A stretch of 64,000 nt of DNA from Dehalococcoidia bacterium (lineage in GTDB: Bacteria; Chloroflexota; Dehalococcoidia; Lucifugimonadales; UBA2962). A program made the translations under genes and the position numbers. Location: contig OZ220697.1 of assembly GCA_965116605.1 (NCBI GenBank), positions 1,617,427 to 1,681,426 on the forward strand, given 5' to 3'. Positions 33,687-58,796 of the stretch are shown piece by piece. The notes beneath the pieces were generated by a model that saw only the letters and a program-made list of their open reading frames with translations, was not told the DNA's origin and ran no database searches. Each line of letters begins with the position of its first letter. Position 1 is the first letter of the stretch.

Positions 33687-33929
33687 CCTCGGGCTCGGTT
33701 GACGGGCGGGGCGGCGGCGCCATTACCGGGTCCTTCGGGGCCGGCAAGCCTGCGGCCCCTCATCGGAGCAGGCGGGCCATCGCCTTTTCGCAAAGGGCTA
33801 AGGCAACGTGAAGTCCTCCCCTAGCATACCCATGCATGCGTCCTCTCTTGGATTTCAAAGTGGCTGCCGGTCCGTGTGTGCGGGCCCCTCTTGCTGTGCG
33901 GAAGCAGGGAAGAACGACTCCCCCAACGC

Positions 33930-35075: not shown

Positions 35076-35087
35076 TCGGGACTCCTG

Positions 35088-36527: not shown

Positions 36528-36581
36528 CTCATGGCCCTCTCTTCACTTAGAGTTCGGTGGGCAACAACCACAATGGGGCAC

Positions 36582-39500
36582 CTACAACCCTCCCATGGTC
36601 ACCGCCGACGTGCCCACGCTGATCAGGGACTCCTCGTTGTCCTCATCATCCGTGAAGGTCACCCGCACCTTGATGACCTTGCCGTTCTCGGTTGACTGGA
36701 GCGTGTAGGTGGAGCTCGTCGCCCCGTCGATCTCCGTGTCGTTGGCAAGCCACTGGTAGCTGTACGACACGCCCGTCAGCCCGTCGGCATCGGAGATTCC
36801 GGACGTGCTGGCCGTCAGGGTCTGGCCAACCTGCTTCGTGCCGCTGATGGTCGGGGCGCCCGTCGCCGGGTTATTCGTGGTAGCGCTCTCATCTTCAGAC
36901 GTAGACCCGTCGCCGACGGAGTTGGTTGCGAATATGCGGACAGTGTACTCGGTCCCGTCACTGAGGCCCGTGATGGTGTATGAGTTCTCCGTCGAGGTAT
37001 CCGTCGTCGTTGCCTCCGATACGTCCGCTTCCGTGTCCCAGCTGTCCGAGTCCTCCTTCCACTGGACCGTGTAGCCCGTTATCTCCGCGCCTCCGTCCGA
37101 TTCGGGTTGCACCCATTCAACATCAAGCTCGCCCGCTGCCCCCGGTTCGACCCGTACGGCGCGGGGCTCGCTGGGAAGCGCCGCCGCCACCGTCCCTAAT
37201 TCCAGGGTTCCGGACTCAAAGTTGCCCAGATCGTCATCGAACTGCCATTTCACCGTGAGTTCCCTGCCCACATACCAGCGTTCGATCGTCCACCGACTTG
37301 TGGAGCCCGGCCTGTTCAAGAAGCTCGTTCCAAGCCAGATGCCGCCACTTGTATCGTCGTCGTAGTCCAGGACCCAGTGGAAGTTCCAGTAGGCATCGTC
37401 CCTCCCGTCCGCATCGCTTATGCCGGAAACATCCACGGTCAACTCCCCGCCCACCTCGACCGTGCCGGTAAAGGTGACGGTCCCCTGAGCAGCGTTGTTC
37501 TCCGCAGCAACCGTAGCGGGATCTACAACCGAGGTCGGAGCGCTGAACATCGTCTCCTCATTTCCCGCATCATCGGTGAAGGTCACCTTAACCTTCAGCC
37601 TCTCTCCTTCGTCCGCGTCCATCAGGAGGTAGCTCTCGCCGGTGGCGTCAGATATGTCGGTGAAGGTGTCCCCATCCCCTCTCATCCACTGGTAGGCAAA
37701 CGTAGCGTTGTCGAGTCCGTTCTCATCCTCGATGCTGTTTCTGCTGTAACCGGAAATGGCGGTGGTCCTGGCCAGTAGGGTATCTCCCACCTCGATCCCG
37801 TAGTGCACCTCTCCGTAAGAGCCGCTCGAATAGCGGTAAAGGATCCGGGGCGCTCCGGACGCCGGGCTGTTGGTACTATCGGCCGCCACCGCAACAGACG
37901 TAGGAGCGCTCTCCACAGCCTCGCTGTAGTTGTCGTCGTCTTTGAAGCTCAGCACGTACGTTATCCTCTTGCCGACATCGGCGGACCGGACCGTGTATCG
38001 GCTGCCCGTCGCGCCATCGACCGCCGTACCGTCCACATACCACTGGGTGGTATCGGTGCGATAGAGGTTGTCATCCGTCCCGTTCCTGTCATAGAAACCA
38101 CCAAAAGACCTCCTTAGTTCCACACCCACCTTCGGGATCCCGCTCAGATAGGGCGCGCCCCTCGCGGGATAGTCGGGATAGACAATGGGCCCGACGGTTT
38201 CGCTCACGACCGTCTCAGAATTGCCGCCGTCGTCGGTGAACGAGACGGACACCTTGACGGTTTCCCCACGTATCCAGCGATTGGGAGTCAGGGACTCTCG
38301 GGTGGAGCACGTGTATTCCCGACTGCCATCGTTGCAGAGCCAGGAATAGCTGAACCCAGAGTCGGGCATGCCGTTCTCGTCGTCGACGCCGGACATGTCG
38401 ACCGTCATGGAATGGTCCGATTTGATATGGGGTTCCCCCACGATGACCGGCTGTCCTGTCGCCGCCACGTTGGTTTCCTCCGCAACGGCATCGGTCGCGT
38501 CGCTTATCACGATCTCGTGGTTGCCCTCGTCATCTTCGAACTTGACCAGCACCTTGATCTCCCTGTCCAGGTCCGATGCGTCGATCTCATACGTGGACGA
38601 GGTTGCGTCATCTATGTCCTCGTCGGTCGTGCCGTCGCTGGAGATCCACTGGTACTCGAAAGTGGGGTTGGTGAGTCCGTCGTCGTCCGCAATGTCCGAC
38701 GTGGACGCGGTGAGGGTCCGGCCCACCGTCGTCGTGCCGCTTATGCTGGGCTGACCGGATGCCAGATTGTTGTCATCATCCGCATTTGGCAGGGTCAGGG
38801 GATCGCCACGACTGATGACGATGCCGTTGCCCCAGGTCATATCGAACTCAGCCGAGACCACCCTGACCGAGGCGGCTCCATCTCCGTCGCGAGTCACCGT
38901 CGTCCCATCGGTGCTGGTGCCGCCGGCCGACAATGTGACTTCTGTTGAGGCCAGCGAGCCTCCATAGGCTTCGAGGGTCAGGGAGATGTCGAAGGGCGTT
39001 GCGTTAGACACGTTGACCACGACATCGCCGTCGTCGTTCCGGGTCAACGTCAGACCGAATGCGAACGGGGCTCCCGGGTTATCCTCCAACGACAGCCGCT
39101 CCAGGGAGGTCCAGCCGTCAAAGAGTCCATCGGGAAGCTCGTCCAGTTGATTTTCGTTGAGGTAGAGGCTCTCCAGGCCGCTGAGGTCGTCGAAGACTTC
39201 GTCCGGGAGGTCGTCCAGTTCATTTTTGCCGAGACCGAGACTCACCAAGGAGCTGAGCTCACTGAAGATGTCGTCCGGAAGATCCTCCAGACTGTTGTTC
39301 CAAAAGCTCAGGTCCTCCAGGTTGTCCAGTTCGGAAAATAGGTCTGCGGAGAGGGAGCTCAGGCTGTTGCCTGTCAAGTACAGACGCTCGAGACTGTCCA
39401 GCTCGTCGAATATCTCATCTGGAAGGCCAGTCAAACCGTTCGAATTGAGATTCAGCTCCTCCAGCTCAGACTGGTTGTCCAGCAACCCCGACGGGAGAGA

Positions 39501-40703
39501 GGTCAAATCGTTGTACGACAGGTCTAGGACTTCCAACACGAGCAGGGAGTCAAACACGTCCTCCGGGAGGGATGAAATGGCGTTACGGTTCAGCTTGAGG
39601 TCCGTCAGCAGCGTCAGGGGGTCGAATACATCGCTCCCCAGCGTCGCCAGGTGGTTCTGATAGACCTGCAATTCGGTCAACCCGGAAAGGCCGGTAAAGA
39701 CTCCATTCGGCAACTCGGTTATGCGGGTCTTCCGGATTTCCAGAGACGGGACATTGGAGAGGCCCGCAAAGTCACCCGCTTTGAAGGAGTCGATTCTGGG
39801 TGCGGGGGGGATGCGGTTGGCCAGGTCCCCAACAAACAGGAACCAACCAGTGATTTCCGAAAGATGTGCGTCAGTTACGAAACCGCAATCCCTAACGTCC
39901 GGGTACCACAGGATCTCTTCCTGTACTACAGGTGTCCGCGAGCAGATGCCGGCGTCCTCAGCGACCACCGCCACCGTCGCCGGGCTGGTCAGGGATTCTG
40001 CATTGCCCAGATCATCGGTGAAGGAGACCCGGACCTTGATGGTCTTTCCCTCGTCGGACGCCTGCAACGTGTACTTTTGACCCGTTGCACCGTCGATGTC
40101 CGTATCCGTGGTGCCGTCGTTCGAAATCCACTGGTAGGAGAAGGTGACATTCTCCATGCCATCCTCGTCCTCGATGAGCCAGTTGCGGGACTGGAGCTGT
40201 CGCGTCACCCGGGGCTCCACGGAACCAGGCAACGGATCTCCGATTCTAGGCTCGCCCGTCGCGGGCGTATTCGTTTCGCGGGTCACCGTCACGGTGTAGG
40301 TCTGGGTGGCCTGGCCGTCTTCGGCGGTCACCTCCACGGTGATGGTGTTGCTTCCCACACTCAGCGAGACAGTGCCGTCTGAGTCCTCGACACCACCGAG
40401 CTTGATGACGTAGCCCGCCCCGGAATGGTTGACCGTGGGCGTGACGGTCGTCTCCGAGACGCTCCTGTACACGCTCGCCGTGTAAGAGGTCGTGCCGGAT
40501 GCGAATGTGCCGAAGTCCACGTTGCTCAGCGTCAGGGCGCTGAGGGTGGCGTCGGTGCTCTGGGTCTGGGCCAGGGCCGTCGGAGTCAGACCCGTTGCTG
40601 CCAGTGCCAGCGCAACCGAAAGTATGAGCGCCGCTCTAGAGCGTCCCGGCCTGACCGCGACCCATGCCAGCCTCGATCTGAGGATTGTCACTGCCCTTGT
40701 CAC
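36582..40703 (-). CDS. Giant surface protein (1373 aa): cadherin-like beta-sandwich, leucine-rich repeats, FN3 and seven ~90-aa YQW..DG..I.GAT..Y.....D.GK.I.V.V.F.DD.GN.E modules
   Basis: - Signal-like N-terminus.
- ATLSALTLSNVDFGTFASGTTSYTA.. (cadherin-like beta sandwich).
- About 12 LRRs (L..L.L..N.L..LP...F..L).
- FN3 (PSEPRAVRVEP...ITGYTVQWKE..YTITGLSDGTEYTVRIFATN). Confidence 0.8.
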   Translation of the reverse strand: MTRAVTILRSRLAWVAVRPGRSRAALILSVALALAATGLTPTALAQTQSTDATLSALTLSNVDFGTFASGTTSYTASVYRSVSETTVTPTVNHSGAGYVIKLGGVEDSDGTVSLSVGSNTITVEVTAEDGQATQTYTVTVTRETNTPATGEPRIGDPLPGSVEPRVTRQLQSRNWLIEDEDGMENVTFSYQWISNDGTTDTDIDGATGQKYTLQASDEGKTIKVRVSFTDDLGNAESLTSPATVAVVAEDAGICSRTPVVQEEILWYPDVRDCGFVTDAHLSEITGWFLFVGDLANRIPPAPRIDSFKAGDFAGLSNVPSLEIRKTRITELPNGVFTGLSGLTELQVYQNHLATLGSDVFDPLTLLTDLKLNRNAISSLPEDVFDSLLVLEVLDLSYNDLTSLPSGLLDNQSELEELNLNSNGLTGLPDEIFDELDSLERLYLTGNSLSSLSADLFSELDNLEDLSFWNNSLEDLPDDIFSELSSLVSLGLGKNELDDLPDEVFDDLSGLESLYLNENQLDELPDGLFDGWTSLERLSLEDNPGAPFAFGLTLTRNDDGDVVVNVSNATPFDISLTLEAYGGSLASTEVTLSAGGTSTDGTTVTRDGDGAASVRVVSAEFDMTWGNGIVISRGDPLTLPNADDDNNLASGQPSISGTTTVGRTLTASTSDIADDDGLTNPTFEYQWISSDGTTDEDIDDATSSTYEIDASDLDREIKVLVKFEDDEGNHEIVISDATDAVAEETNVAATGQPVIVGEPHIKSDHSMTVDMSGVDDENGMPDSGFSYSWLCNDGSREYTCSTRESLTPNRWIRGETVKVSVSFTDDGGNSETVVSETVGPIVYPDYPARGAPYLSGIPKVGVELRRSFGGFYDRNGTDDNLYRTDTTQWYVDGTAVDGATGSRYTVRSADVGKRITYVLSFKDDDNYSEAVESAPTSVAVAADSTNSPASGAPRILYRYSSGSYGEVHYGIEVGDTLLARTTAISGYSRNSIEDENGLDNATFAYQWMRGDGDTFTDISDATGESYLLMDADEGERLKVKVTFTDDAGNEETMFSAPTSVVDPATVAAENNAAQGTVTFTGTVEVGGELTVDVSGISDADGRDDAYWNFHWVLDYDDDTSGGIWLGTSFLNRPGSTSRWTIERWYVGRELTVKWQFDDDLGNFESGTLELGTVAAALPSEPRAVRVEPGAAGELDVEWVQPESDGGAEITGYTVQWKEDSDSWDTEADVSEATTTDTSTENSYTITGLSDGTEYTVRIFATNSVGDGSTSEDESATTNNPATGAPTISGTKQVGQTLTASTSGISDADGLTGVSYSYQWLANDTEIDGATSSTYTLQSTENGKVIKVRVTFTDDEDNEESLISVGTSAVTMGGL

Positions 40704-42190: not shown

Positions 42191-43447
42191 TCAGGGAGCT
42201 GGGCGGTGATGGCCATAGAACTGGGCAACCGCACCCTTGCCGGCGGTCTCGTTACGGATGTAGTGCGCCGGCATCCTGGAAGTACGCCAGCGTCCGGCGG
42301 TCATCAGGCTGGGCAGTTCGATTCCAGCCCTGGCCAGGTCGCGAGCCATTCCAACCCGTGGCGAGTGGCCGCTGAATCCGTCTCCAAGCCCAGCCACCTG
42401 TGCTGCCATCTTGATTCGCTTGGCGATTTGATTGGGCCGCAATCCAAACACGGTGTCGTCATCAGACGCCTCATTTCGGATTGAACATAGCGCCGCCATT
42501 GTCGCTGTGGAAACGAAGGCGACGGCGCCCTCGCCTTCGGCGTCAGTCTTGGAACGTCGAATCAGGAGTCGCCCCGTGCCGTCGGCTGCCGAAGCAATGT
42601 CCCTCCAGATCAGCACGGCCGCTTCGGATACCCTCAGCATGGCGTCCCTCATGAGGCTGATCATCGCAACGTCAAGGTTGCCCCGGGCTCTGGCGGTCTG
42701 AGGACTCTCAAGTCTACCGCCTCGACCGCGCCGCGGCTTACAGGCGGTGGAACGTATAGCGGCCAGGGCCTCGGCCGTCAGACCCTCCGCCTGCTTCTGG
42801 GACCTTCCCGCCATGCGAGTCGCGCTCCTGAGCATCCTCCTAACCTCGGGACCTGCACAAGGATCCTCGATCCCCGCGGTCCTGTGGGCGAAGGCGATTG
42901 CTGCTGCGGCCACTCGCAGCGTCGCCGGCCTGTGCCCCAGCTCTTCTATGCGCTCGGCAAGATACGCGGCGACATGCACCGGATCGGCAGGCAACGGCTG
43001 CACACCCTTGACCATTGCCCACATGCAGAAACTTCGCCACTGGACATCGTAGTTTGCAATCGTAGTGCGTGAGACTTCATGATCGAGTATCGCGTTAAGG
43101 TTGCCTATATCGGATTCTGAGAGATCCTTTATTGGACTCTGAGGCGCAGCAGGCAGGGACTTATAGACACCTGTTTGATTGATGCAAACGCCGTTAGATT
43201 CCAAGCCATAGTTAGTCCCTTTGCGCGCACCTTCTTTGTAAGATTCATCTGCGGCCGCAGAGGTTTGATCAGCCTTCGCAATTGAGGTGTGAGTCTCTAT
43301 CGCTTCGAGACTGGAGTTCCCTGACTCCAATTCCGAAATGAGACGACGAGCTAGGCTATGGCCAACTCCTTTACTCATTGGATGGTGGTCGATCGGGAGG
43401 TGGCTCGTGTGCACGCTGTGGAAGACTTTCGGCCTGTGGCGCGCCAT
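42191..43447 (-). CDS. Tyrosine site-specific recombinase (Xer/phage-integrase family)
   Basis: Catalytic signature in order: MLRVSEAAVL (Arg), SGHSPRVGMARDL (HxxR), GRWRTSRMPAHYIRN (Trp/His...Tyr). A SAM-like N-domain is present (TIANYDVQWRSFCMWA...HVAAYL). The ATG at 43447 has AAGGAG 5 nt upstream. The track's GTG 43507 lies inside the inverted repeat. Confidence 0.85.
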   Translation of the reverse strand: MARHRPKVFHSVHTSHLPIDHHPMSKGVGHSLARRLISELESGNSSLEAIETHTSIAKADQTSAAADESYKEGARKGTNYGLESNGVCINQTGVYKSLPAAPQSPIKDLSESDIGNLNAILDHEVSRTTIANYDVQWRSFCMWAMVKGVQPLPADPVHVAAYLAERIEELGHRPATLRVAAAAIAFAHRTAGIEDPCAGPEVRRMLRSATRMAGRSQKQAEGLTAEALAAIRSTACKPRRGRGGRLESPQTARARGNLDVAMISLMRDAMLRVSEAAVLIWRDIASAADGTGRLLIRRSKTDAEGEGAVAFVSTATMAALCSIRNEASDDDTVFGLRPNQIAKRIKMAAQVAGLGDGFSGHSPRVGMARDLARAGIELPSLMTAGRWRTSRMPAHYIRNETAGKGAVAQFYGHHRPAP

Positions 43448-43480
43448 AAATCTCCTTGGCTCTTTGATAACCTGTCTGCC

Positions 43481-43514
43481 AAGGCGCGTATAACTGCTCT
43501 TATACACGCTTTAG
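43481..43514. repeat. Right dif-like recombination core site (inverted repeat R)
   Basis: AAGGCGCGTATAACTGCTCTTATACACGC TTTAG is the reverse complement of 42015-42048 with one mismatch in the outer 5 bp. The ORF track shows the same peptide, MYKSSYTRL, at 42022(+) and 43507(-). Confidence 0.85.
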
Positions 43515-49697: not shown

Positions 49698-50168
49698 CTA
49701 GATCTCCCACCACCATGACGATGTGTAGATCCTCATGTCTCCAATTTCTTCGGCCGTTGATGCAGTCCACATATCCTCCCCGTCGTCCCCCAACCTGGAG
49801 TTGTCGTCAAGTTGTCGGTACACATTGGCGGTGATTTGCGTAGGCGGCCCTGCCCGGGAGGAGAGCTTGGCAGCGTAGTTTGCTGCTCGGCCGACCCACA
49901 CAAGGTCGTTGGCACCCCGTACGCCAGTACGCGCCACGAGGAGTCTGCTTGCGTCTATGCCGACGACTTGCTTGACTGAATAGCGACTCGCTCGATAGTG
50001 GGCGCGTATGGCTGGATTGATGATCTCCTTTACCGCGAAGTTGATCTTGAGAGCGGCCCGCACCGCGCTGCTGTTCCTCTTCCTGCCAATGAAAACCGCC
50101 ATGATGCGGTCGCCATCGTACGCGGTGATCGCTCCACGCTCGCGGCCAATGATCCGAGCGGCGCACAC
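49698..50168 (-). pseudogene. 3' part of a class III nucleotidyl cyclase gene (N-terminal metal-binding half missing)
   Basis: It starts just before YDGDRIMAVF (the GDGiMAvF motif) and continues VVGIDASRLLVARTG.....DLVWVGRAANYAAKLS (G.v.G..G......y...G..VN.AaRL). Upstream in frame there are only stops. Confidence 0.6.
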
Positions 50169-50175
50169 TAGGTAG

Positions 50176-50820
50176 GACTACTCCGTCTACACGATGAGGC
50201 AGGCCTCGCGCAGGTCCTGGCGCATCGGCCAGACACAGCCCGTCAGGCTCGTGTTCATGTCCTACCGCGACACCCTGCAGGCCGACGCCCTGAAGCTGGT
50301 GGCAAAGAAGCTTCAGTCGTCGTTGGCCGTCGAGGGCGAACTGCCGGAGGACGGGCTCGCCGCGTTTGGCGACGACGGCGACGACCTGATGATGGCGCTG
50401 GCCCGCAAGATCGTCAGCGGCGAGCGGGACGAGCCTGAGACGGTGGAGGAGGTCTTCGCTACGGCGCAGGACGCCGCGAGCGAGGCCGAGGAGCTGCTGG
50501 TGGACAAGGACTGGAGGCCGGTCGAGGTCGAGCCGGAGAACATCTCGGTCAACGGCAACGGCCATCACGAGGGCTTCGGCATCGGGCCGACGGTCGAGGT
50601 GGCCCCGGTCAATGGTCGCAACGGCAATGGTCACCACGACGGTGCCGACGAGCCGCCGCAGTCGCTGTTCTCGTGGGCGGAGTTCATGGCGGCAGAGCCA
50701 ACCAGGCCGAAGGGCCGCAGGAGCAAGCCTCAGCCCGCCTCCATGTCCATGTTCGAGTGGGCGTTCGAGCAGGAGCGGGAGCGCAAGGCCGAGGCGGAGT
50801 TGGTCGAAGCGGGAGGATAG
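50176..50820 (+). pseudogene. 3' part of an SNF2/DEAD-like helicase gene (motif VI onward)
   Basis: DYSVYTMRQASRRSWRIGQTQPVRLVFMSYRDTLQADALKLVAKK is the helicase motif VI region (Q...R..RiGQ). It is preceded in frame by a stop at 50173, and no helicase core lies upstream. Confidence 0.6.
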
Positions 50821-50832
50821 GACGTGACACAA

Positions 50833-50865
50833 GGGTGAGGATGCCGCTTGGCGGCATCCTCACCC
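50833..50865 (+). terminator. Perfect 15-bp stem / 3-nt loop hairpin downstream of the helicase stump
   Basis: GGGTGAGGATGCCGC TTG GCGGCATCCTCACCC starts 13 nt after the stop codon. No U-tract follows, so intrinsic-terminator function is uncertain. Confidence 0.4.
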
Positions 50866-50918
50866 GCCCGTACCCCCATATGCGGCCTTTTTCGCGTTTC
50901 AGGACAGGAGAAAAAACC

Positions 50919-51305
50919 ATGACCCCGCCTACCGACATAACGAAGCGACTCACCGACCCATTACAGGAGGAGACGATGCACCTGTTCGACGCCGATGCCA
51001 GGGAAGAGAAGGCTCTCTGCGGAGCCGACGTCTCCGCCGAAGACCTGATGACCGTCCAATACTGCCTGGCGCAGCTTATCCGTGGCGTTCCCGTCGGGAA
51101 TGTCTGCAGGGCATGCATTCGTTTCGCGGCGTGTTGGGCCGAGGAGCACTGCCGGAAGCTGGAAGCCGAAACCATGCTCCTGCGGGCCAACGCGCAAAGG
51201 CTGCATGAGAGGAACGCGACGCGCTATCGAAACAGCTTGGAGGAGGCGGACCTTGAGGCCGACCGCCTGCTCGAACGGGCCCGCCGACTCGCCGACACGC
51301 TTTAG
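50919..51305 (+). CDS. Hypothetical protein (128 aa), Cys-containing N-half and coiled-coil-like C-half
   Basis: ATG 50919 is preceded by AGGAG (50906-50910). MTPPTDITKRL...CGADV...NVCRACIRFAACWAEEHC...LEADRLLERARRLADTL. The upstream part of the track's longer ORF looks like a GC shadow. Confidence 0.45.
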   Translation: MTPPTDITKRLTDPLQEETMHLFDADAREEKALCGADVSAEDLMTVQYCLAQLIRGVPVGNVCRACIRFAACWAEEHCRKLEAETMLLRANAQRLHERNATRYRNSLEEADLEADRLLERARRLADTL

Positions 51306-51564: not shown

Positions 51565-52053
51565 TCAAAAGGGCAAGTCGTCAGGACTCCGGTTTGCCCT
51601 TGCTTCCTCGAACTGCCGCCTCATCTCGGCAGCTTCGGCGTCAGACGGTTCGCGATGGCACAGCACGAAGCCGGCTCCGAAGTGAACCAACTCTACATCT
51701 GGAGGCATCACCCGTGCCAATGGGCGATTGTCCTCACCTTGTGGCTCGGAAGCCCCGACAACTGACGAAGCCGGGTTGTATGCCACCATCGCCTTACCAT
51801 CAGACCGCAGATAATGGCCAACAGGCTTGGGGGAGTAATCGCCATCTGTGCGGGCACCTGCATATTGACTGACGACTGAGCGCACGTCTGACTGCTGAGG
51901 GCCAGCCTGCCAAGTCACATGAATGGATGCTCCTTCCGCATAGCGACTGGACCTGACAGAGAACTTGACATCCGGGAAGTTCTCCTTGAGCGAATACCGG
52001 ACTAGCCTAGCTACCTCAACAACGTCAATGTATCGGGGACGTCTGTCAGTCAT
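51565..52053 (-). CDS. Hypothetical protein (162 aa), possibly LPD29-like domain
   Basis: ATG 52053 is preceded by AGGAGGG. ARLVRYSLKENFPDVKFSVRSSRYAEGASIHVTWQAGPQQSDV resembles, from memory, a domain found in polyvalent proteins of conjugative elements. The family call is low confidence. Confidence 0.45.
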   Translation of the reverse strand: MTDRRPRYIDVVEVARLVRYSLKENFPDVKFSVRSSRYAEGASIHVTWQAGPQQSDVRSVVSQYAGARTDGDYSPKPVGHYLRSDGKAMVAYNPASSVVGASEPQGEDNRPLARVMPPDVELVHFGAGFVLCHREPSDAEAAEMRRQFEEARANRSPDDLPF

Positions 52054-52218
52054 TGTCCCTCCTGGGGTGTCAGCGAAGCTCCCTGATGGCGAATGACGGC
52101 AACAGCCACTTGAGTTGTCGATGCTTTGCGAATCGAGCATACAGGGTCCGGGGTGGCCGTGCTAGAAGCGACACGGTTCTCTCGTCTATCGGTTGACGGT
52201 TCAACGACTTTCCCTGAC

Positions 52219-53715
52219 TCAGTCCAACCACATAGTCAGTGCACAAGCTCTATCATCCAACCATCTGAGGATGCGGATCTTGACTCCGGGGGTATTCCCG
52301 AGTTGTCGCAGCAACTCGGCCTGTTCATGTCGGCCGGTGAGATTGGCACGCCGGTCGCCCACACCTTCGCCCAGTTCCGCAGGACAGTGCGGGCGCGTGG
52401 TGTCGTCTAGGTGCTGAAGGAAGTGAGAGCTGAGGGCGTAACGAAGCGGACCAGGGTCACCCAAGCCAGCTGGTGCCACGCTGTATGAGACGTACTGCGC
52501 AAGGAGGCTAGCAACGACGTTTACGGAGAGCGGAGCCACATTCTGATTGGCCGGGACATCTGAGCGACCAGCACCCGCGAGGTACTCCGGGTCGGCAAGG
52601 AGACCGTCCCTATCGGGGATAACCTCACCGAGGTCGATTTGTCGGTTGCAGCTCATACAAGGTCTCATGGGTCGGATGACATGGGAACGCCAAGTCGCAT
52701 TTCGCATCCTTCCGTCTTTGAAGGTATCGATGCCAATGCCCCCGTCGATCACGGGAATGAAGTCGGAGTAAGCCAGGGCATTGAGGACTGCTCGCGGCCA
52801 GGGGCGGTCAACACAGGAGAATATGAGATCATGGTCCAGCGCCAACCGCAGTCCCTCGGGTTCGCATATGGATAGATCGGACACCTCGATCTTGGCATTC
52901 TCCGCCGTGGAGGCATCGGCCCCTTCCCTCTGGGCCACGAACGTCTTCGGTCGCAGCAGCCTGGCGTCGCGAGGTTTGGCTCCGATGAGCCTGTCGAGGT
53001 TGTGGTACTGGACTATGTCGAAGTCCATGACTGTTATGTTGCACAGCCCCGACGCGGCCAAGCGCAGGACGACGTCAAGCCCTACACTCCCGGCGCCCAC
53101 GACGAGGACCCTGCGCCGGGCGAGGTCTGCTTGGCATTCCTCCCCCCAAGCGCTTACAGTGCGCAACTGCCCCTCAGTTGGTCGCGGCGGCGGGCTGAGG
53201 AGTTCATTCCACGAAACGGCAAGTCGGTCACCGACTACCCGCACATTGGTGGAGTCAGTGCAGGCAATCTGCCTACCGACCTCGATGTTCCAAAAGCGAG
53301 CCGACCAGGTGTGGTTACCCGTCGCGAGGGTCATTCCCACCAATGGCAGCGCTGTCAGCTCTCGGACGAGGTTGGCGTAACTGGATTCGGTGTCGCGGTC
53401 AGGTTCACTCATGAACTGCCAGCTGTCGGCCTTGGGGTGACTGTGGAGCAGGACCAGGCCGGACTCACTTCTCTGGGCTACCTGGGCACCCCGCAGTATG
53501 TATTGGCCAGTCACAGTCACGTTGCCATCCACGGTTCGGTCCTCCGACTCGGGCGGTACTACCGAAGTAATCAGTGCACTGACGCGGCTCTTCCCCGTAG
53601 AGAGGCGATAAGTTGCCAGGCAGGCATCTTCTTGACCGTCGGATCGGACCAGTAGACTCAACAGCGCCTTCTCGGTGGCGGCGGTCATTGCAACCGAGGT
53701 GGTTTTCGAGGTCAT
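52219..53715 (-). CDS. JAB (JAMM-like) deubiquitinase domain fused to ThiF/E1-like adenylation domain
   Basis: N-terminal half: GLVLLHSHPKADSWQFMSEPDRD (HxH...SxxD JAMM-like). C-terminal half: RRVLVVGAGSVGLDVVLRLAASGLCNITVMDFDIVQYHNLDRL (Rossmann GxGxxG plus D.D.v...NL.R of ThiF/MoeB/E1) and CMSC. ATGA overlap with the upstream gene. Confidence 0.8.
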   Translation of the reverse strand: MTSKTTSVAMTAATEKALLSLLVRSDGQEDACLATYRLSTGKSRVSALITSVVPPESEDRTVDGNVTVTGQYILRGAQVAQRSESGLVLLHSHPKADSWQFMSEPDRDTESSYANLVRELTALPLVGMTLATGNHTWSARFWNIEVGRQIACTDSTNVRVVGDRLAVSWNELLSPPPRPTEGQLRTVSAWGEECQADLARRRVLVVGAGSVGLDVVLRLAASGLCNITVMDFDIVQYHNLDRLIGAKPRDARLLRPKTFVAQREGADASTAENAKIEVSDLSICEPEGLRLALDHDLIFSCVDRPWPRAVLNALAYSDFIPVIDGGIGIDTFKDGRMRNATWRSHVIRPMRPCMSCNRQIDLGEVIPDRDGLLADPEYLAGAGRSDVPANQNVAPLSVNVVASLLAQYVSYSVAPAGLGDPGPLRYALSSHFLQHLDDTTRPHCPAELGEGVGDRRANLTGRHEQAELLRQLGNTPGVKIRILRWLDDRACALTMWLD

Positions 53716-54059
53716 GAGGTTGCCTCACCAAGGACAGCGCGGACATGGCTAGTCCAACAGACTCCCGGTGAGGCATCACCCCATCCGATGACGTTGCGGC
53801 TGTGCTTCAGCCAGTCGGCCTTCGTTGAGGATCGGCTGTTCGTTTCCGAGAAGCTGACGCCGGCAGGCAGGTGAATCCAATGGGGAGGTGCTTGTGGCCA
53901 GGGGCTGAGTTCGCCAACGCTCACGCCGGTTACGACCGCCGTACCTGCGTGGGCACCGTCAATGGGTTGGATACGGTAGACTACGAGCCCATCCTCGACC
54001 TCGGGATTGAAACCCAGGTCCGTCAAGGCGTCGATGAACCCTTGAACCCCGTGGTCCAT
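53712..54059 (-). CDS. Small E2/UBC-like protein (prokaryotic E2 family associated with multiubiquitin operons)
   Basis: 115 aa, wedged by overlaps between the Ubl and JAB-E1 genes. It carries a PPHWIHLP string and a single Cys (PGVCWTSH). The call rests on size, operon position and my memory of the Prok-E2 family-E pattern. Confidence 0.55.
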   Translation of the reverse strand: MDHGVQGFIDALTDLGFNPEVEDGLVVYRIQPIDGAHAGTAVVTGVSVGELSPWPQAPPHWIHLPAGVSFSETNSRSSTKADWLKHSRNVIGWGDASPGVCWTSHVRAVLGEATS

Positions 54060-54304
54060 TATGCCATGGGCCCCTTCTGGCGGATCGCTACGAATCTGGC
54101 ATCCTTCGTGATTTCGACGACTTCGTCATCATCGAAGTGCTTGGTCTCGGGTCGGTCCTTGCCTATGAGTTCGCCGAGGTCGTAATTGGCCGGGTCCAGT
54201 CCAGCCAGACGAAGAAGTGCCGAGGCCTTCTGGCTGATGTCGTCTGTCGTGAATGGTTGGCCGTCAATGGTGAATGGGATTGAGCGCCGAGCTGAGTCGG
54301 TCAT
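54059..54304 (-). CDS. Ubiquitin-like beta-grasp protein (multiubiquitin-family, single domain)
   Basis: 81 aa from ATG 54304 (AGGAGG 8 nt upstream). IPFTIDGQPFTTDDISQKASALLRLAGLDPANYDLGELIGKDRPETKHFDDDEVVEITKDARFVAI fits the multiubiquitin beta-grasp pattern. The stop overlaps the E2 start (TAATG). It ends ..RQKGPMA with no terminal Gly-Gly. Confidence 0.6.
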   Translation of the reverse strand: MTDSARRSIPFTIDGQPFTTDDISQKASALLRLAGLDPANYDLGELIGKDRPETKHFDDDEVVEITKDARFVAIRQKGPMA

Positions 54305-54446
54305 TCCTGATCCTCCTGTCCCGATGTACTTTTCCTTTCCATGCGTCATGTTATCCACACCCTTCTGGGCTCTCAGGCCGCCATATTTGTTGACTGCGAC
54401 GGTCGTCCGCCAAACAGCCTCTTGATACAATGATGACGGCGGATCC

Positions 54447-54492
54447 CCGAAACCTGCACGGAAGCGCTCCCGTCTCCGCGTGCAGGTTTCGG
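54447..54492. promoter_or_regulatory. 14-bp perfect inverted repeat in the divergent promoter region
   Basis: CCGAAACCTGCACG (54447-54460), an 18-nt spacer, then CGTGCAGGTTTCGG (54479-54492). It lies between the Ubl operon and the sigma-like/XRE operon. Confidence 0.5.
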
Positions 54493-55256
54493 CCGCGGCT
54501 CGCCGTTATCTCCATCAAGAGATGGTAGTGATGGAGGCCCACGAAAAGTTCACCCTTCCACCTGACGTCCAGGCGGAGCTTGCGGCCCTTCCAGAACCGA
54601 CCGCACCCGGCTACCTCGACAGCTTGGAACGAGCGCCTCTTGAGGTGGTGGTAATCGCACGTCGCTTTGCGACGGACCAGAGACTCCGAGACCAGATTGA
54701 CTCGATCCTGGTCAGTCGCTTAACGCCAGTCATCCGGGCTGCCGTTCATCGGCATGGGCGAGTGTCTAGAACGGAGCTCAAAGACGCCGAGCAAGAGGCG
54801 ATGGCTCTGTTCTGGGAGGCGATTCTGAGTGAGTCCTTCTTCGAAGTGCGGTTCAACCAGGCTATGCGGTTTCTTGCTAAGCAGGCTGGGAGGAAGATAC
54901 GGGGAGGCAAGCAGAGGGAGTTCGAAAGTTCCGCCCTACGTGCCGGGACCGAGGATTCTGAGAATCCAGACGGCCGAGATAGTCCCGTAGACGTCCCAGA
55001 CCGTGTTGACGAATATTCTCGGTCCGAGGACCGGAACCTCATCAATTTAGGGCTGGCTTCACTTCCCGAGGAGCAAGCGAGGGCGATAGTCCTTCGCTAC
55101 AGAATGGACCTGCAAATCTACAGCCATGATCCCGCAGTGCGCACGGTCGCTTCGGTACTTGGCTGCGGGGAGCGAAAGGCCCGTAAGCTGATCGCGGACG
55201 GTAGGGCGGGCTTGCGGCGTGCCATTGGTCAGGAGGACGACTATGAGTCGCGTTAA
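54480..55256 (+). CDS. Sigma-70 family (ECF-like) sigma factor-like protein
   Basis: A region-2-like segment (AEQEAMALFWEAILSESF) and a region-4 HTH (LPEEQARAIVLRYRMD...IASVLGCGERKARKLIADGRAGLRRAI) are present. The start is uncertain (GTG 54480, ATG 54522 or 54531). Confidence 0.6.
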   Translation: MQVSAAARRYLHQEMVVMEAHEKFTLPPDVQAELAALPEPTAPGYLDSLERAPLEVVVIARRFATDQRLRDQIDSILVSRLTPVIRAAVHRHGRVSRTELKDAEQEAMALFWEAILSESFFEVRFNQAMRFLAKQAGRKIRGGKQREFESSALRAGTEDSENPDGRDSPVDVPDRVDEYSRSEDRNLINLGLASLPEEQARAIVLRYRMDLQIYSHDPAVRTVASVLGCGERKARKLIADGRAGLRRAIGQEDDYESR

Positions 55257-55872
55257 CAGAGGCAACGGGGTGCAGAAGTTCTGGGAAGCGCGTGCCAGCG
55301 GCGCGGAAGTCGAGGTGAAGGCAATCCTTGAAGAGCATCCAGATGAAGCGTTGGAGCTTGCAGATGCAATCCGAGAGGCCGCGAGGCAGGAAGATTCGGC
55401 GGCTCGGGAGCGCATGTGGCTTGCGCGAGCACATGTGCTCAACCAGTCGGGTGGAGATATGAGTCTGGGAGACCTGCTCCGCAGCTCGCGGGAAGAAGCG
55501 GGCTTGAGCACGACCGCCCTTAGCCAAAGAGCTCAGGGACGCGGAGTAAGTCTAATCGCAACGGCGATCCAGCAATTGGAAGCTGACAGGGCGAAGGTCA
55601 CAAACTTAAGGACTCCCGGTCTGTGGTCGACACTTGCGGAGATTTTGCAGATTGACCCCCACAGACTCGTGGCGACGATTCGACTCGCCGTCTCTGGTTC
55701 CCCCACAGCACAGCGCTTCACGCGGATGGAGCGGGGGTCGACAGCTGCAAACCGTCAACGACTTATGACTAGCGGGTTGCCATTAGATGCGGGAGATGAC
55801 ATGGCAGACTATATCGATTGGGTCAGGGAGGAATTGGGCCTACCGCCTTCGCCGACCGATGCGACTCAATAG
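55243..55872 (+). CDS. XRE-family helix-turn-helix regulator
   Basis: ATG 55243 has AGGAGG 6 nt upstream and overlaps the sigma-like stop. SLGDLLRSSREEAGLSTTALSQRAQGRGVSLIATAIQQLEADR is an XRE-type HTH. Confidence 0.65.
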   Translation: MSRVNRGNGVQKFWEARASGAEVEVKAILEEHPDEALELADAIREAARQEDSAARERMWLARAHVLNQSGGDMSLGDLLRSSREEAGLSTTALSQRAQGRGVSLIATAIQQLEADRAKVTNLRTPGLWSTLAEILQIDPHRLVATIRLAVSGSPTAQRFTRMERGSTAANRQRLMTSGLPLDAGDDMADYIDWVREELGLPPSPTDATQ

Positions 55873-56346
55873 CCGGTGCTGCTCGAGGGCGATGAAGATG
55901 ACGTCCTGCGACACCTGGTATCGTCTTGCAACGTCAGCCGGCATCAATCCAGCATCAACATCTTTGCGAAGCCATCGAGGTGGCACTAGCAACACACTGC
56001 TGAAGTAGTCCGCTTCGCGTTCAAGTTCCTTTTCCGGGTCCGCCGAGTACAGCGCGCTCTCAGGGTCCTCGTGTGGGGAGAATACGAAGCCGTCCGGGTG
56101 CATTAGATAGTGGCCTATCTCATGCCCGATCGAGAACCGCTGTCCGGTTTCAGACTCAGAGGCATTCACGTGAATCTGTCCGTGTTCAAGCAGTGCGCGA
56201 CCGCCGTGTTCGCCCGTGTCGGAATAGACTATGTGGAGAAACAGGGATGCAGCGAGGTGCTTCACATCAACCGGCGGGAGGCTAACCCCGGCGTCTTTGA
56301 GGAGGTCCTCAGCCTTGATCCTACATAGATGAGTTCGTACTGGCAT
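55840..56346 (-). CDS. ImmA/IrrE-family zinc metallopeptidase
   Basis: FSIGHEIGHYLMH (HExxH) plus EREADYFSSVLLVP is the ImmA/IrrE signature. Its 3' end overlaps the convergent XRE gene by 33 nt. Confidence 0.8.
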   Translation of the reverse strand: MPVRTHLCRIKAEDLLKDAGVSLPPVDVKHLAASLFLHIVYSDTGEHGGRALLEHGQIHVNASESETGQRFSIGHEIGHYLMHPDGFVFSPHEDPESALYSADPEKELEREADYFSSVLLVPPRWLRKDVDAGLMPADVARRYQVSQDVIFIALEQHRLLSRIGRRRR

Positions 56347-56741
56347 CAGTAGCGGTCTCGTCGTTGGTCGATTCGTTCAGCGAAACGGTCCGTCAAGCCT
56401 GCTCCGTGGTCTCGTAGGGTGTCCAGGTAATTGGCGAACCAGCGGACGGCGATTGCAGCGTCCCCTCGGCCAACAGAGCGCTTCTCCATGGCCTTGCGGA
56501 GTTCAGTAGCAGCCTCGGCCACATCATCCGCGTCGAGTTCATCTTCAAATACCCAGTTCAGATCGTACAAACCTAGCTCTTCCAACGCATCACTCATGTC
56601 GTCGGTGCTGACGCCGCAATAGTCGACATTCAACCAGGGACACTTGATGTTCTGTTGTCGAGCAACACAGGTCCGGATCCCCTGGACAGGGTTTTCGGGA
56701 CGGCATGGTACCGGGTCAGGCCAAATGAGCGGTCGCTCCAT
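56346..56741 (-). CDS. Hypothetical protein coupled to the ImmA-like gene
   Basis: Its stop overlaps the ImmA start (TGATG). An acidic helical segment is present (MSDALEELGLYDLNWVFEDELDADDVAEAATEL). The true start may be internal. Confidence 0.4.
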   Translation of the reverse strand: MERPLIWPDPVPCRPENPVQGIRTCVARQQNIKCPWLNVDYCGVSTDDMSDALEELGLYDLNWVFEDELDADDVAEAATELRKAMEKRSVGRGDAAIAVRWFANYLDTLRDHGAGLTDRFAERIDQRRDRY

Positions 56742-56851: not shown

Positions 56852-57688
56852 CTACTCCATCGACCTGAGGAACTCCTGGGCGAGGCCGACCACATCCGCT
56901 TGTATTTCATCGTCGGTCCCCAGGGTCAAGAACTGTGCCGCCCCTATAGGGCCGAGGCCGTCGTGGCTGCAGAAGTCCCTAGCAACTATGGACAGTGCGT
57001 CGTCAATGTAGGCGCTCGGCTGGAGGGAAGCCAGGCTCTCTACGACTTTGGGGACTCCCAGCCCTCTCCATACATAGAAAAGGTCGTACGCGTCTTTGTT
57101 TTCCGCCCTGTTGCCAAAGGCAAGAGCTTTGAGGATCGTAAAGGCGCCTGGACCGCACACGGGAATGCTGCGAGTCGCCCACGCACCGGAAGGGGTGCGG
57201 GCTGACAGCTCTTTCCACTGCCGGTCCCTGAAGGCCAGTTCGAGACCTGGTGTGACTATAGCGGCCAGATCAGATTCGATGTGGAGGAGTGCACCTCCTT
57301 GATCTGCCTCATCGGTGGGAGGAATCAGGAAGTCCACCCGTACAGAATAAGGAGCGATCGTAGTCCAGGTCTGTAATCTCATGTTGCTCTGCTCATTCAC
57401 TTCGGGCTCGAATCCTGCGTCTCGCAACCTGTCGCCCAGCTCTCGATAGCGCTCGCGATTCAGCATGGCCAACGCCAAGCCCATGTCCAGATCCATTGTT
57501 CCCGCGTGAGGGTCTAGACCCGGCGGCAGGTCTCCTTGGTCGACAAGCAGATAGGGAACCAGCCCGCCCACAACAACGACCTCATCAAGCAGATCTCCCA
57601 ACTTAGTTGCCATGTGAAGACATGTGCTCTGGACAAAGCCCAGCTGCTCGATGCCGTAGCCGCCACCGCTTGGTGGCTTAGAGGTCAT
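56852..57688 (-). CDS. AbiEii/AbiGii-like nucleotidyltransferase (type IV TA / abortive-infection toxin family)
   Basis: VVVGGLVPYLL...HAGTMDLDMGL (NTase G-x and DxD region) and FTILKALAFGNRAENKDAYDLFYV (K..A...R...KD.YDL) are present. It overlaps the upstream AbiEi-like gene. Confidence 0.6.
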   Translation of the reverse strand: MTSKPPSGGGYGIEQLGFVQSTCLHMATKLGDLLDEVVVVGGLVPYLLVDQGDLPPGLDPHAGTMDLDMGLALAMLNRERYRELGDRLRDAGFEPEVNEQSNMRLQTWTTIAPYSVRVDFLIPPTDEADQGGALLHIESDLAAIVTPGLELAFRDRQWKELSARTPSGAWATRSIPVCGPGAFTILKALAFGNRAENKDAYDLFYVWRGLGVPKVVESLASLQPSAYIDDALSIVARDFCSHDGLGPIGAAQFLTLGTDDEIQADVVGLAQEFLRSME

Positions 57689-58796
57689 CGTTGTCTCCCA
57701 AGAGGAGCCGCTTCCGCAGCTCTTCTGCGGCTTCTGTCGCCCTTTCGGGGTGACTCTTCAGATCGAGATAGGCCTGCACAGGATGGACGCACCGTATGCC
57801 ATCAACAACCTCGGCTCCATCGAAGACGCCCTCGTCGTTGGGTGTAACCAGCCAAGTGTTCGCCCCTTTAGGCTCTTCCCTGAAGCCGAGGTCGCTCTTG
57901 ACCCCCACCGATGGGGGACGTGAGAGATACACGGTGGAAAGACGGAATCCGGCGTGTCGTGTCAACAGCCACGCTGCGGCGAGCCCCGTCACTGCGTACG
58001 ATACGTCCGTGCTAGAGAGGACTTCTGCGATTGACCGGGTTAGCGAATCGCCTCCCGAAGTTGAAATGTGACCCCGGATCACGTGGTGTCGGTCGAACCT
58101 GTAGTCTTCCCTCCATGCGTCGAGCAGTGTCCCCCTGTCAGTGACACGGATGCCATCATCGCCTCGTTGCACGAGACCGGCCTCGAGGAGCTTGCCTATG
58201 ACGCGGCTTGCATGTCCCTCATTTAGACCGACGCTGGAGGCTATCGCGCGCTGAGTTTTTGGCTTGGAAGGCTCAATGAGCAATTGCCTTGCTATTCGAG
58301 AGCCCTTAGTTCCGAACGGGCTCTCTGGCCTTCCGGGCCTGCGGAACAGATTGGGATTCCCTAGGTTCTGGTAGAAGATGCCGGGCACGATGATTCTAGC
58401 GTTGCCTGAGAGGTCCAGCCATGGAAGTTGGGCTTCCTCGCAACGTTCCTGGCCTGCTTCGCCCATGTAAGGGACTGCTAGGGCTGGAGTTACCCTTTGA
58501 GGGAAGCTGCTCGGGGCCGTCCTCAATTTGCGAATTGCCTCAGTGATATGGCCAAGGGACCCCGATCGCTTCCATTCCAAGACGAAGGACTGATCTAGAT
58601 TGGTGAAGACGGCGTCCCAGACGCAATCGTCATCGGTGCGCACATTGAAGCTGGCGTCTTCAGTCAAGTCGGCGACGCCAAAGATGTCGGCGAGACGATC
58701 GACTGCTTGCCGAATTGCCATGGACTCACGTGGGATCTGCATAAGTGCTTTTATACCATGCTTTGCGCATTTGCGCAACCCATGCTGTTTAAGCAA
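57678..58796 (-). CDS. AbiEi-like antitoxin/transcriptional regulator (extended N-terminus)
   Basis: A winged-HTH segment (TQRAIASSVGLNEGHASRVIGKLLEAGLVQR) and a C-terminal ..CVHPVQAYLDLKSHPERATEAAEELRKRLL match the AbiEi C-domain pattern. An 11-nt overlap links it to the NTase gene. Confidence 0.55.
   Translation of the reverse strand: MLKQHGLRKCAKHGIKALMQIPRESMAIRQAVDRLADIFGVADLTEDASFNVRTDDDCVWDAVFTNLDQSFVLEWKRSGSLGHITEAIRKLRTAPSSFPQRVTPALAVPYMGEAGQERCEEAQLPWLDLSGNARIIVPGIFYQNLGNPNLFRRPGRPESPFGTKGSRIARQLLIEPSKPKTQRAIASSVGLNEGHASRVIGKLLEAGLVQRGDDGIRVTDRGTLLDAWREDYRFDRHHVIRGHISTSGGDSLTRSIAEVLSSTDVSYAVTGLAAAWLLTRHAGFRLSTVYLSRPPSVGVKSDLGFREEPKGANTWLVTPNDEGVFDGAEVVDGIRCVHPVQAYLDLKSHPERATEAAEELRKRLLLGDNDDL

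Follow-up and report, generated by a model that had tools for sequence, protein, structure and literature searches.

What kind of system is encoded by a compact operon that combines a ubiquitin-like protein (Ubl), an E2-like protein and a fusion of a JAMM-type (JAB) peptidase to an E1 adenylation domain? The question is raised by a stretch of 64,000 nucleotides from a Dehalococcoidia bacterium (assembly GCA_965116605.1, contig OZ220697.1, positions 1,617,427 to 1,681,426; hereafter the window), in which a preliminary description had singled out such an operon as a candidate novel system. The operon is real, but it is not categorically new: class 6e of the bacterial Ubl systems has already been characterised biochemically as Bub, and because the tyrosine and serine oxyesters of Bub are known, the enzymology is largely predictable and the system is less novel (PMC11601596). 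The three-gene tagging operon is a stripped-down relative of Bub, and the Bub kind itself is already known. Our reading, to which we give a probability of roughly 0.6, is that the locus represents the Bub (6E) lineage in a minimal form that has no BubE, placed under an ImmA/IrrE-type (CapP-like) regulatory module and working in the manner proposed below.

The trio consists of three intact genes on the minus strand, according to open reading frame (ORF) calls and the sequence itself. Its genes, domains and proposed catalytic codons are:

54059-54304, minus strand: Ubl (BubA-like, single beta-grasp), 81 amino acids, from ORF and sequence.
53712-54059, minus strand: E2-like protein (BubB-like), 115 amino acids.
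53799-53801, minus strand: codon of the proposed catalytic Ser87 of the E2-like protein, with His86, predicted from alignment.
52219-53715, minus strand: JAB/JAMM-E1 fusion, 498 amino acids.
53221-53670, minus strand: JAB domain, about residues 16-165, with E29, H91, H93, S103 and D106.
52336-53166, minus strand: E1 adenylation domain, about residues 184-460, with G207xG209xxG212, R242, D296, C353xxC356 and C444.
52582-52584, minus strand: codon of the proposed catalytic Tyr378, in the crossover loop of the E1.

The start-to-stop overlaps that had been described can be read directly in the sequence. The Ubl stop and the E2 start share TAATG (reverse complement of 54057-54061), these two genes being in different frames, and the E2 stop and the E1 start share ATGA (reverse complement of 53712-53715); because stop and start codons overlap, co-translation of the trio is implied. 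The motifs quoted in the preliminary description (HSHP...SEPD, GAGSVG, NLDRL and CMSC) are each present in the 498-residue translation, as is the Ubl end RQKGPMA. The Ubl ATG at 54304 is preceded by AGGAGGA, a ribosome-binding site that is kept in related loci, and an alternative in-frame ATG at 54349 would give a 96-residue protein, the length at which gene callers annotate the nearest homologues in databases. Here and in all related loci, the Ubl and the E2 have a gene each, with no BubAB-type fusion. The same gene order with full-length conservation recurs in about 109 further loci, of which protein look-ups and plasmids gave 29 and metagenomes 80; this is far more than chance would produce.

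The proposed fusion of a JAMM-like peptidase to a ThiF/E1 domain is borne out by database comparison. The 498-residue protein matches ThiF in Pfam (E = 2.3e-23) and, weakly, Prok-JAB (E = 0.009), and its best sequence relative of solved structure is Citrobacter BubCD (9ea4; E = 2.3e-16, phmmer against PDB sequences), in an alignment of residues 16-374 with 17-361 that covers both domains. The system in question was first defined as class 6e, in which a polyUbl is accompanied by an E2/RWD-like protein termed 'inactive', by a JAB-E1 fusion and by Y, a metal-binding protein (Iyer, Burroughs & Aravind 2006; PMC1779556), and has been renamed Bub, formerly 6E.1/DUF6527 (Ye, Gong, Chambers, Corbett; PMC11601596, PMC11601603). 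Type I Bub is composed of BubAB (a Ubl-E2 fusion), BubCD (JAB-E1) and BubE (DUF6527, a Ser-His protease) (PMC11601596, PMC11601603). In this pathway, the JAB domain cuts BubAB after a conserved Gly, as shown for Citrobacter BubCD; the E1 adenylates the Ubl, which then forms a Ubl~Tyr370 oxyester; and the E2 carries a Ubl~Ser333 oxyester, with His335 and Asp299 near and the Ser required for conjugation (PMC11601596).

The corresponding residues are retained in the window protein and its relatives (hereafter the clade). Among 30 JAB-E1 sequences at 27-73% identity, E29, H91, H93, S103 and D106 of the JAMM site are invariant, as are G207/G209/G212, D231, R242, D296, C353, C356, C444 and Y378 of the E1. 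In a wider census, all of the listed JAMM and E1 residues are kept in 79-85 of 85 distinct ORFs, with E29, H91, H93, D106, R242 and Y378 kept in 83-85. By alignment, R242 is Citrobacter R227 and Tyr378 falls on the Y370 motif of Bub; its motif, Y-[LIV]-x-G-A-G, is shared with canonical Bub E1s, where it contains the catalytic Tyr (Paracoccus AYVRGAG, Citrobacter GYITG). The CxxC of the clade E1 is read as a zinc site of the MoeB/ThiF type, because the canonical Bub E1s of Paracoccus, Rhizobium, Deinococcus and Nostoc have a CxxC and a second CxxC, which Citrobacter has lost. Identity of the E1 to canonical Bub members is below 31%, as against at least 40% inside the clade, and matches of the PADLOC E1-E2 models to the E1 are restricted to the Rossmann core.

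For the E2-like protein, no match was found in Pfam, NCBIfam or PADLOC, with thresholds as lax as E <= 10, or among PDB sequences, and a first narrow E2 profile and phmmer against PDB sequences returned noise only (an aquaporin). Its assignment as E2-like in the preliminary description is nevertheless upheld by structure prediction and profile alignment. The AlphaFold2 model has a mean predicted local distance difference test score (pLDDT) of 92.7, and Foldseek ranks Citrobacter BubB first (9eae_C; E = 0.17, probability 0.72), with the eukaryotic E2s UbcH7 and Ubc12 next at template-modelling (TM) scores of 0.5-0.57. When 75 diverse E2-like members were aligned with six canonical BubB proteins using hhalign, a full-length match over 112 columns was obtained (probability 87%, E = 4.2e-6). 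The narrow alignment of 32 sequences was not significant against BubB (E 0.05-0.08); significance was reached only with the diverse metagenome members included.

Residues P59, H60, W61, H63, T73, N74, S78, H86, S87, R88, W93, G94 and H105 are invariant in the E2 family, which includes an invariant PPHW(I/V/L)H motif at residues 58-63. A conserved cysteine is absent, the top Cys frequency of any column being 0.19. In the hhalign alignment (HSR against WSRH), Ser87-Arg88 is matched to the catalytic Ser of the canonical W-S-R-H motif; HSR is present in 65 and WSR in 6 of 81 sequences, and Ser-Arg is kept in 71. The clade has its partner His at -1 (HSR), canonical BubB has it at +2 and one divergent subclade (WSRPH) has it at +3, and the position of the canonical Asp299 is taken by His60. 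Because this active-site constellation departs from that of Type I Bub, catalysis by Ser87 is no more than plausible.

The Ubl had been assigned to the multiubiquitin type, and this holds, largely through structure comparison. The Pfam family Multi_ubiq (PF14452) matches residues 11-76 at 19.3 bits, under its 24.5 cut-off, and is matched by 12 of 37 Ubl homologues; a Ubl profile found nothing among PDB sequences. The AlphaFold2 model (pLDDT 83) has beta-grasp topology with a disordered tail, and each of its nine top-ranked PDB hits is a Bub multi-ubiquitin or BubA structure (Foldseek probability 1.0, TM 0.69-0.74, root-mean-square deviation 1.8-2.7), among them BubA in complex with BubCD. A Rhodococcus orthologue has two tandem repeats.

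The tail of the Ubl is unusual. In the window, the precursor ends in R75-Q-K-G78-P-M-A81, and the family end across 120 close and 78 more diverse sequences is [A/G/(T/S)]-x-V-[A/(E,V,S,G)], for example KGPVA, SAPVA, ADVA and GGVA. There are always exactly three residues past the small residue, with a nearly invariant Val at -2 and a final residue that is mostly Ala; at -4, Ala is commoner than Gly and Thr is sometimes found. Counted from a conserved Phe in the last strand, the terminal residue lies 10 residues away and Gly78 lies 7 away, and canonical BubA tails measure 9-11. In canonical split BubA proteins, the C-terminus is either G itself or G with a short extension (GGAA, GGGV, GHGNH). 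Trimming by the JAMM domain after Gly78 is the parsimonious reading, but processing may be absent: the constant length of the tail, its invariant Val and the comparison of tail lengths leave room for activation of the terminal residue instead.

According to the published definition, 'All Bub operons possess bubE' (PMC11601596, PMC11601603). We found no BubE/DUF6527 (PF20137) in the 64-kb window, in 28 fetched loci or in 80 metagenome loci with a hidden Markov model built from six canonical proteins, all six of which it recovers (E 1e-40 to 3e-55). No conserved gene was detected downstream of the E1 when ORFs within 2.5 kb were clustered across the 62 loci whose sequence continues for more than 1.5 kb past the E1, and the sole downstream sharing was within one set of near-identical contigs. 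The 162-residue gene that had been noted 165 nucleotides beyond the E1 gene is indeed the ORF at 51565-52053 on the minus strand; as a co-occurring partner it fails, being found in 0 of about 109 loci. This gene (encoding an LPD29 protein), a 131-residue ORF, an AbiEi/AbiEii-like pair and a 399-residue ORF were considered as parts of the system and rejected, as none is conserved beside the trio, with the exception of a weak match (1e-6) to the C-terminal third of the 131-residue ORF in one locus.

The trio is widespread in metagenomes. A profile search of genome contigs yielded 3 loci only, and the metagenome search, with a profile built on an 11-sequence alignment, reached a total of at least 490 loci, with 195 clusters (50% identity) at E <= 1e-30. 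It occurs in metagenome-assembled genomes of Chloroflexota (Caldilineaceae; E1 identity 73-75%), on actinobacterial plasmids (M. avium, M. abscessus, Rhodococcus, Nocardioides, Clavibacter and Pseudarthrobacter; 48-56%) and in soil-type metagenomes (40-66%). No trio homologue was found in 50,697 phage GenBank records or in IMG/VR, an absence that says nothing either way about defence. On a plasmid of the haloarchaeon Halorarius halobius (L025, 2674-5892), a 110-residue protein, a 145-residue E2-like protein (YWSRDW) and a 520-residue JAB-E1 (28% identical) are encoded with no DUF6527 gene; therefore, BubE-less variants exist in archaea too. Two canonical Bub loci, on Bradyrhizobium and Deinococcus plasmids (L022 and L023), have a 'phosphotransferase' of roughly 500 residues between the E1 and DUF6527, and their E2 motif is FSWH, not WSRH.

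The preliminary description had also credited the operon with its own regulator set. This is real and, in the locus census, is the sole conserved accessory of the trio. The features are:

54447-54460 / 54479-54492: putative operator, a perfect 14-nucleotide inverted repeat, CCGAAACCTGCACG / CGTGCAGGTTTCGG, with an 18-nucleotide spacer, from a repeat search.
54522-55256, plus strand: sigma-70-family protein of the extracytoplasmic function (ECF)-like type, about 244 amino acids, divergent from the Ubl operon.
55243-55872, plus strand: HTH_31 (XRE-type) helix-turn-helix (HTH) protein, about 209 amino acids, overlapping the end of the sigma gene; HTH_31 match 5.9e-5.
55840-56346, minus strand: ImmA/IrrE-type (M78) metallopeptidase, 168 amino acids, peptidase domain only, convergent with the HTH gene.

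The start of the sigma gene was mechanically called at GTG 54480, within the inverted repeat, and ATG 54522 fits the homologue lengths; the start of the HTH_31 gene was likewise picked to fit homologues of 208-210 residues. The sigma protein matches TIGR02937 sigma70-ECF at 6.8e-6 (under cut-off) and Sigma70_r4 weakly. Orthologues of the sigma protein (56-59% identical) and of the HTH_31 protein (57-61%) occupy the same positions in three related loci (L001, L002 and L004), two of which (L002 and L004) also have the M78 orthologue, and RefSeq sigma factors adjoin the trio on M. avium and Nocardioides plasmids. The M78 protein matches Peptidase_M78 in Pfam (2.6e-16) and capP in PADLOC (3e-23), and its best PDB matches are CapP (7t5t; 4.4e-6) and Deinococcus IrrE. 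M78-like peptidases adjoin the trio in most related loci with enough flanking sequence. CapH and CapP regulators are present in 31% of published Bub operons and respond to DNA damage (PMC11601596, PMC11601603); as in that pair, an HTH and an M78 protein are encoded beside the operon here, but the M78 protein is short, the HTH protein has no capH match, and the sigma-like gene is interposed between the trio and the HTH/M78 pair.

Across the loci, the regulator module takes at least four interchangeable forms, with the trio constant, and every form includes an ImmA/IrrE-like metallopeptidase. Module A (the window, L001, L002 and L004) is the sigma-70-like, HTH_31 and 168-residue M78 set; module B (L026-L035, about 20 metagenome loci and M. 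avium pP7a) has a different sigma (r2 + r4), a 300-residue ImmA-like protein and a Rad50/SbcC-like SMC_N ATPase; module C is a fused HTH-M78 protein; and module D is a short HTH protein with an M78 protein. The module B ATPase is a 600-residue Rad50/SbcC-like SMC_N/AAA_23 protein with a possible zinc hook, its ImmA-like partner measures 300-336 residues, and this module could be a controller that senses DNA ends. On the M. avium plasmid pP7a (L016, 9134-12653), a DEAD/DEAH helicase is encoded next to it, and metagenome copies are found among L036-L068.

The half-sites of the inverted repeat, TGCAGGTTTC, are kept in sequence in the other module A loci (L001, L002 and L004) with no compensatory changes, which favours a protein-binding site over an RNA hairpin; the repeat fits an operator. 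It forms part of four concentric inverted repeats (54419-54521, common centre near 54470) between the Ubl and sigma genes, of which relatives clearly retain only the inner 14-nucleotide pair; a possible second site is an outer element resembling TAAT(A/C)AC(G/A)GC. No sigma-70 consensus promoter and no intrinsic terminator were called in 51.4-56.9 kb. Upstream of the M78 gene, the stop codon of the 131-residue ORF (56346-56741, minus strand) overlaps the M78 start. Only its C-terminal third (about 83 residues from Met49) is weakly matched directly upstream of the M78 gene in L004, and its product may be a small partner of the M78 peptidase.

In the working that we propose, the Ubl-E2-JAB/E1 operon would be kept off through its divergent promoter and the inverted-repeat operator. 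After DNA damage or infection, the M78 peptidase would cleave the HTH protein, the proposed repressor, by analogy with CapH/CapP, ImmR/ImmA and DdrO/IrrE, and expression would then rise, possibly through the co-encoded sigma-70-like protein. The JAMM domain would trim the Ubl precursor, most likely after Gly78 with loss of Pro-Met-Ala (in the alternative, Ala81 itself would be activated). On homology to the Citrobacter and E. coli Bub proteins, the E1 domain is predicted to adenylate the Ubl C-terminus by means of its G-loop, R242 and D296. The Ubl would pass to the crossover-loop Tyr378 as an oxyester and then to Ser87 of the E2, helped by His86 and His60, from which it would be transferred to target amino groups or lysines with no E3. 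Because there is no BubE serine protease, the JAMM domain would be the sole candidate deconjugase. The role could be anti-phage or a general damage response.

Several observations weigh against this scheme. The chemistry is carried over from proteins about 25% identical (E1) or related at profile level only (E2); the E2 active site is laid out unlike that of Type I Bub, in both its His and its Asp positions; and the E1 retains its invariant CxxC and C444, so that it may conceivably have a catalytic cysteine. The Ubl tail is odd in having Ala or Thr at -4, a near-invariant Val and a fixed length, and in a Phe-to-end distance that fits canonical BubA better. The window M78 protein has 168 residues against 291 for the CapP chain in 7t5t; therefore, the C-terminal part of CapP is missing, and its role is supplied elsewhere or not at all. 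Finally, anti-phage protection by Bub systems themselves has not been shown (PMC13373217).

Two other readings keep the conjugation machinery and change one component. It is possible, if somewhat unlikely, that the Ubl is never processed, in which case the E1 would adenylate and conjugate the full-length protein ending in Val-Ala81 and the JAMM domain would act only as a deconjugase or editing enzyme. The constant three-residue extension, its Val at -2 and usual final Ala, and the Phe-to-terminus distance would all be accounted for, as would the occasional Thr at -4, which is poor as an activated Ubl C-terminus. On the other hand, a final residue that varies among A, E, V, S and G is odd for one held in an adenylation pocket, canonical split BubA proteins carry short dispensable tails past the Gly, cutting after the conserved Gly has been shown for the Citrobacter BubCD JAMM domain, and the JAMM site is invariant in the clade. 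We consider it improbable that the E2-like protein is a non-catalytic adaptor (RWD-like, the name first given to the 6e E2 by Iyer et al.) that chooses the targets, with the E1 alone transferring the Ubl to them, either directly from the adenylate or by way of Tyr378. The lack of a conserved cysteine, the His and Asp of Type I BubB not being at matching positions, and the weak Foldseek support for the fold (E = 0.17) agree with such an adaptor. Against it, the equivalent Ser of Bub forms a Ubl~Ser oxyester required for conjugation, the Ser-Arg pair aligned with it is widely kept, and Ser87 lies within a dense, active-site-like cluster of invariant polar residues (H60, H63, T73, N74, S78, H86 and H105).

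The remaining readings concern what the cassette is for. An unlikely one, which nonetheless deserves weight, is that the cassette is primarily a mobile-element or stress switch and not an immune system, in which the Ubl would be attached to the regulators encoded beside it (sigma, HTH or peptidase) or to repair proteins of the host and would so tune a DNA-damage response or element induction. The trio travels only with regulators (sigma-70-like, HTH and ImmA/IrrE-like, with the Rad50/SbcC-like ATPase in one module), with no effector gene and no conserved downstream gene; some copies adjoin recA amid housekeeping genes, many are on plasmids, and Bub lacks a demonstrated anti-phage phenotype. 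Yet the exchange of four or more types of regulator around a constant trio is the pattern of 'Cap' controllers of immune operons and not of substrates, and Bil, in which the conjugation step is itself antiviral, shows that a Ubl system can do without a separate effector. A ThiS/MoaD-ThiF type sulfur-carrier, cofactor or peptide-antibiotic system with no protein conjugation is highly improbable and is effectively refuted by the census. In its favour are the scores of the E1 on ThiF/MoeB models and its RefSeq name, which is only 'ThiF family adenylyltransferase'; these NCBIfam scores, however, are far under the cut-offs (e.g. 55 vs 275), the E1 has no rhodanese domain, the JAMM domain and the E2-fold protein are always present, and the closest characterised relative carries out protein conjugation. 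Linkage to cofactor sulfur transfer, which the preliminary description had named as evidence that would count against conjugation, was not seen: the neighbours are regulators, and no thiamine, molybdopterin, cysteine or siderophore genes are conserved beside the trio in about 109 loci. A more far-reaching reading, which we hold to be doubtful, is that the BubE-less clade is a mechanistically distinct pathway. It would use a His-Ser E2 dyad, and either the unprocessed Val-Ala end would be activated or the tripeptide would be a 'safety cap' removed by the JAMM domain on induction; the sigma and ImmA-like protease (with the Rad50-like ATPase in some loci) would form a circuit that senses DNA damage or foreign DNA, and host or invader proteins would be tagged in Chloroflexota and Actinomycetota. 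If this were true, it would be a second, inducible actinobacterial protein-tagging system beside pupylation, including on Mycobacterium and Rhodococcus plasmids.

Compared with known systems, our preferred reading, a BubE-less Bub relative, agrees with class 6e in its polyUbl or solo Ubl, 'inactive' E2/RWD-like protein, JAB-E1 fusion and sporadic spread that includes actinobacteria, and differs in that the fourth component Y (now DUF6527/BubE) is missing from the clade loci. With Type I Bub, the clade shares full-length JAB-E1 homology, a Ubl of the multi-ubiquitin type, a Cys-less E2 with a conserved Ser, the crossover-loop Tyr, the lack of an E3, frequent CapP-like/HTH regulators, plasmids and defence-type neighbourhoods. 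It differs in lacking BubE in about 109 loci; in its split, translationally coupled Ubl and E2 genes, which are likewise split in some RefSeq loci with DUF6527; in the E2 motif His-Ser-Arg (not Ser-x-His) with His60 replacing Asp; in an E2 and, mostly, Ubls too diverged for Pfam and NCBIfam models; and in the fixed [A/G]-x-Val-x tail and an often linked sigma-70-like gene. Bil systems (Type I/II) likewise combine a Ubl, an E2, a JAB and an E1 and have no E3, but with a multidomain E1 (IAD-AAD-CYS), a Cys-containing E2 and a stand-alone JAB, whereas the locus has one adenylation domain fused to JAB and no conserved E2 Cys; no PADLOC Bil match was found, and PADLOC models were blank on the Ubl and E2. 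Type II cyclic oligonucleotide-based antiphage signalling systems (CBASS; Cap2/Cap3 with CapH/CapP regulators) resemble the locus in their E1-type adenylation, JAB peptidase and CapP-like M78 protein; their Cap2 is an E2-E1 fusion that conjugates the CD-NTase, whereas the E2 is separate here, and the cassette of the window and census loci has neither a conserved CD-NTase nor a conserved effector. ThiS/MoaD-ThiF/MoeB systems differ in E1 scores far above those of the locus on equivalog models, in the constant JAB and E2 of the clade, and in its lack of biosynthetic neighbours. Thus, the locus is Bub-type by function and ancestry, lacks two of the published features, BubE and the BubAB fusion, and has a third altered (the E2 active site). 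No description of a BubE-less type was found in the literature searched; members of the clade may already be among the 544 published Bub operons.

The surroundings of the operon had been described as Abi and nuclease genes. Such neighbours are present, but they are never conserved beside the trio. Across loci, neighbours of defence type include a HEPN-nucleotidyltransferase, an Eco57I-type restriction-modification gene, PemK, PIN, AbiE and toxin-antitoxin genes, a neighbourhood compatible with defence and no proof of it. In the window, an AbiEi_2-type antitoxin/regulator of 372 residues (57678-58796, minus strand) overlaps a 278-residue protein with a weak AbiEii nucleotidyltransferase match (E = 0.06), and this pair (56852-58796) is probably a separate AbiE-type toxin-antitoxin or abortive-infection pair. 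The 162-residue LPD29 protein carries 'large polyvalent protein associated domain 29' (4.5e-17); its gene starts at ATG 52053 with the ribosome-binding site AGGAGGG, and a longer 191-residue ORF starts at 52140. A tyrosine recombinase gene (42191-43507, minus strand; Phage_integrase 7.5e-12), separated from the cassette by about 9 kb, raises the possibility that 42-64 kb is an island or integrated element; the 64-kb window contains no tRNA gene. Between a histidine-kinase gene and the LPD29 gene (49698-51305) are short ORFs without a Pfam match, possibly gene remnants, one of which (50194-50820, plus strand) has a start that by eye resembles a helicase C-terminal region. The window also encodes three very large proteins of secreted or surface type (29454-40703, minus strand; 1410, 479 and 1373 residues) with cadherin, LRR, fn3 and CARDB repeats, which are unrelated to the Ubl finding.

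Among the known bacterial ubiquitination-like pathways, Bub systems have diverged furthest, and they work through oxyesters, not thioesters. Because the Ubl and E2 are annotated as 'hypothetical protein', the systems of this clade are invisible to standard pipelines. As the clade shows, the BubE protease is dispensable for the existence and spread of the conjugation core. The clade also extends the Bub lineage to Chloroflexota and to actinobacterial plasmids, including those of tractable genera with large phage collections (Mycobacterium and Rhodococcus). Its natural active-site variants (HSR, WSRH and WSRPH) offer a means to dissect the Ser-based E2, within a minimal, widespread and tractable model that carries an unusual sigma-linked control module.

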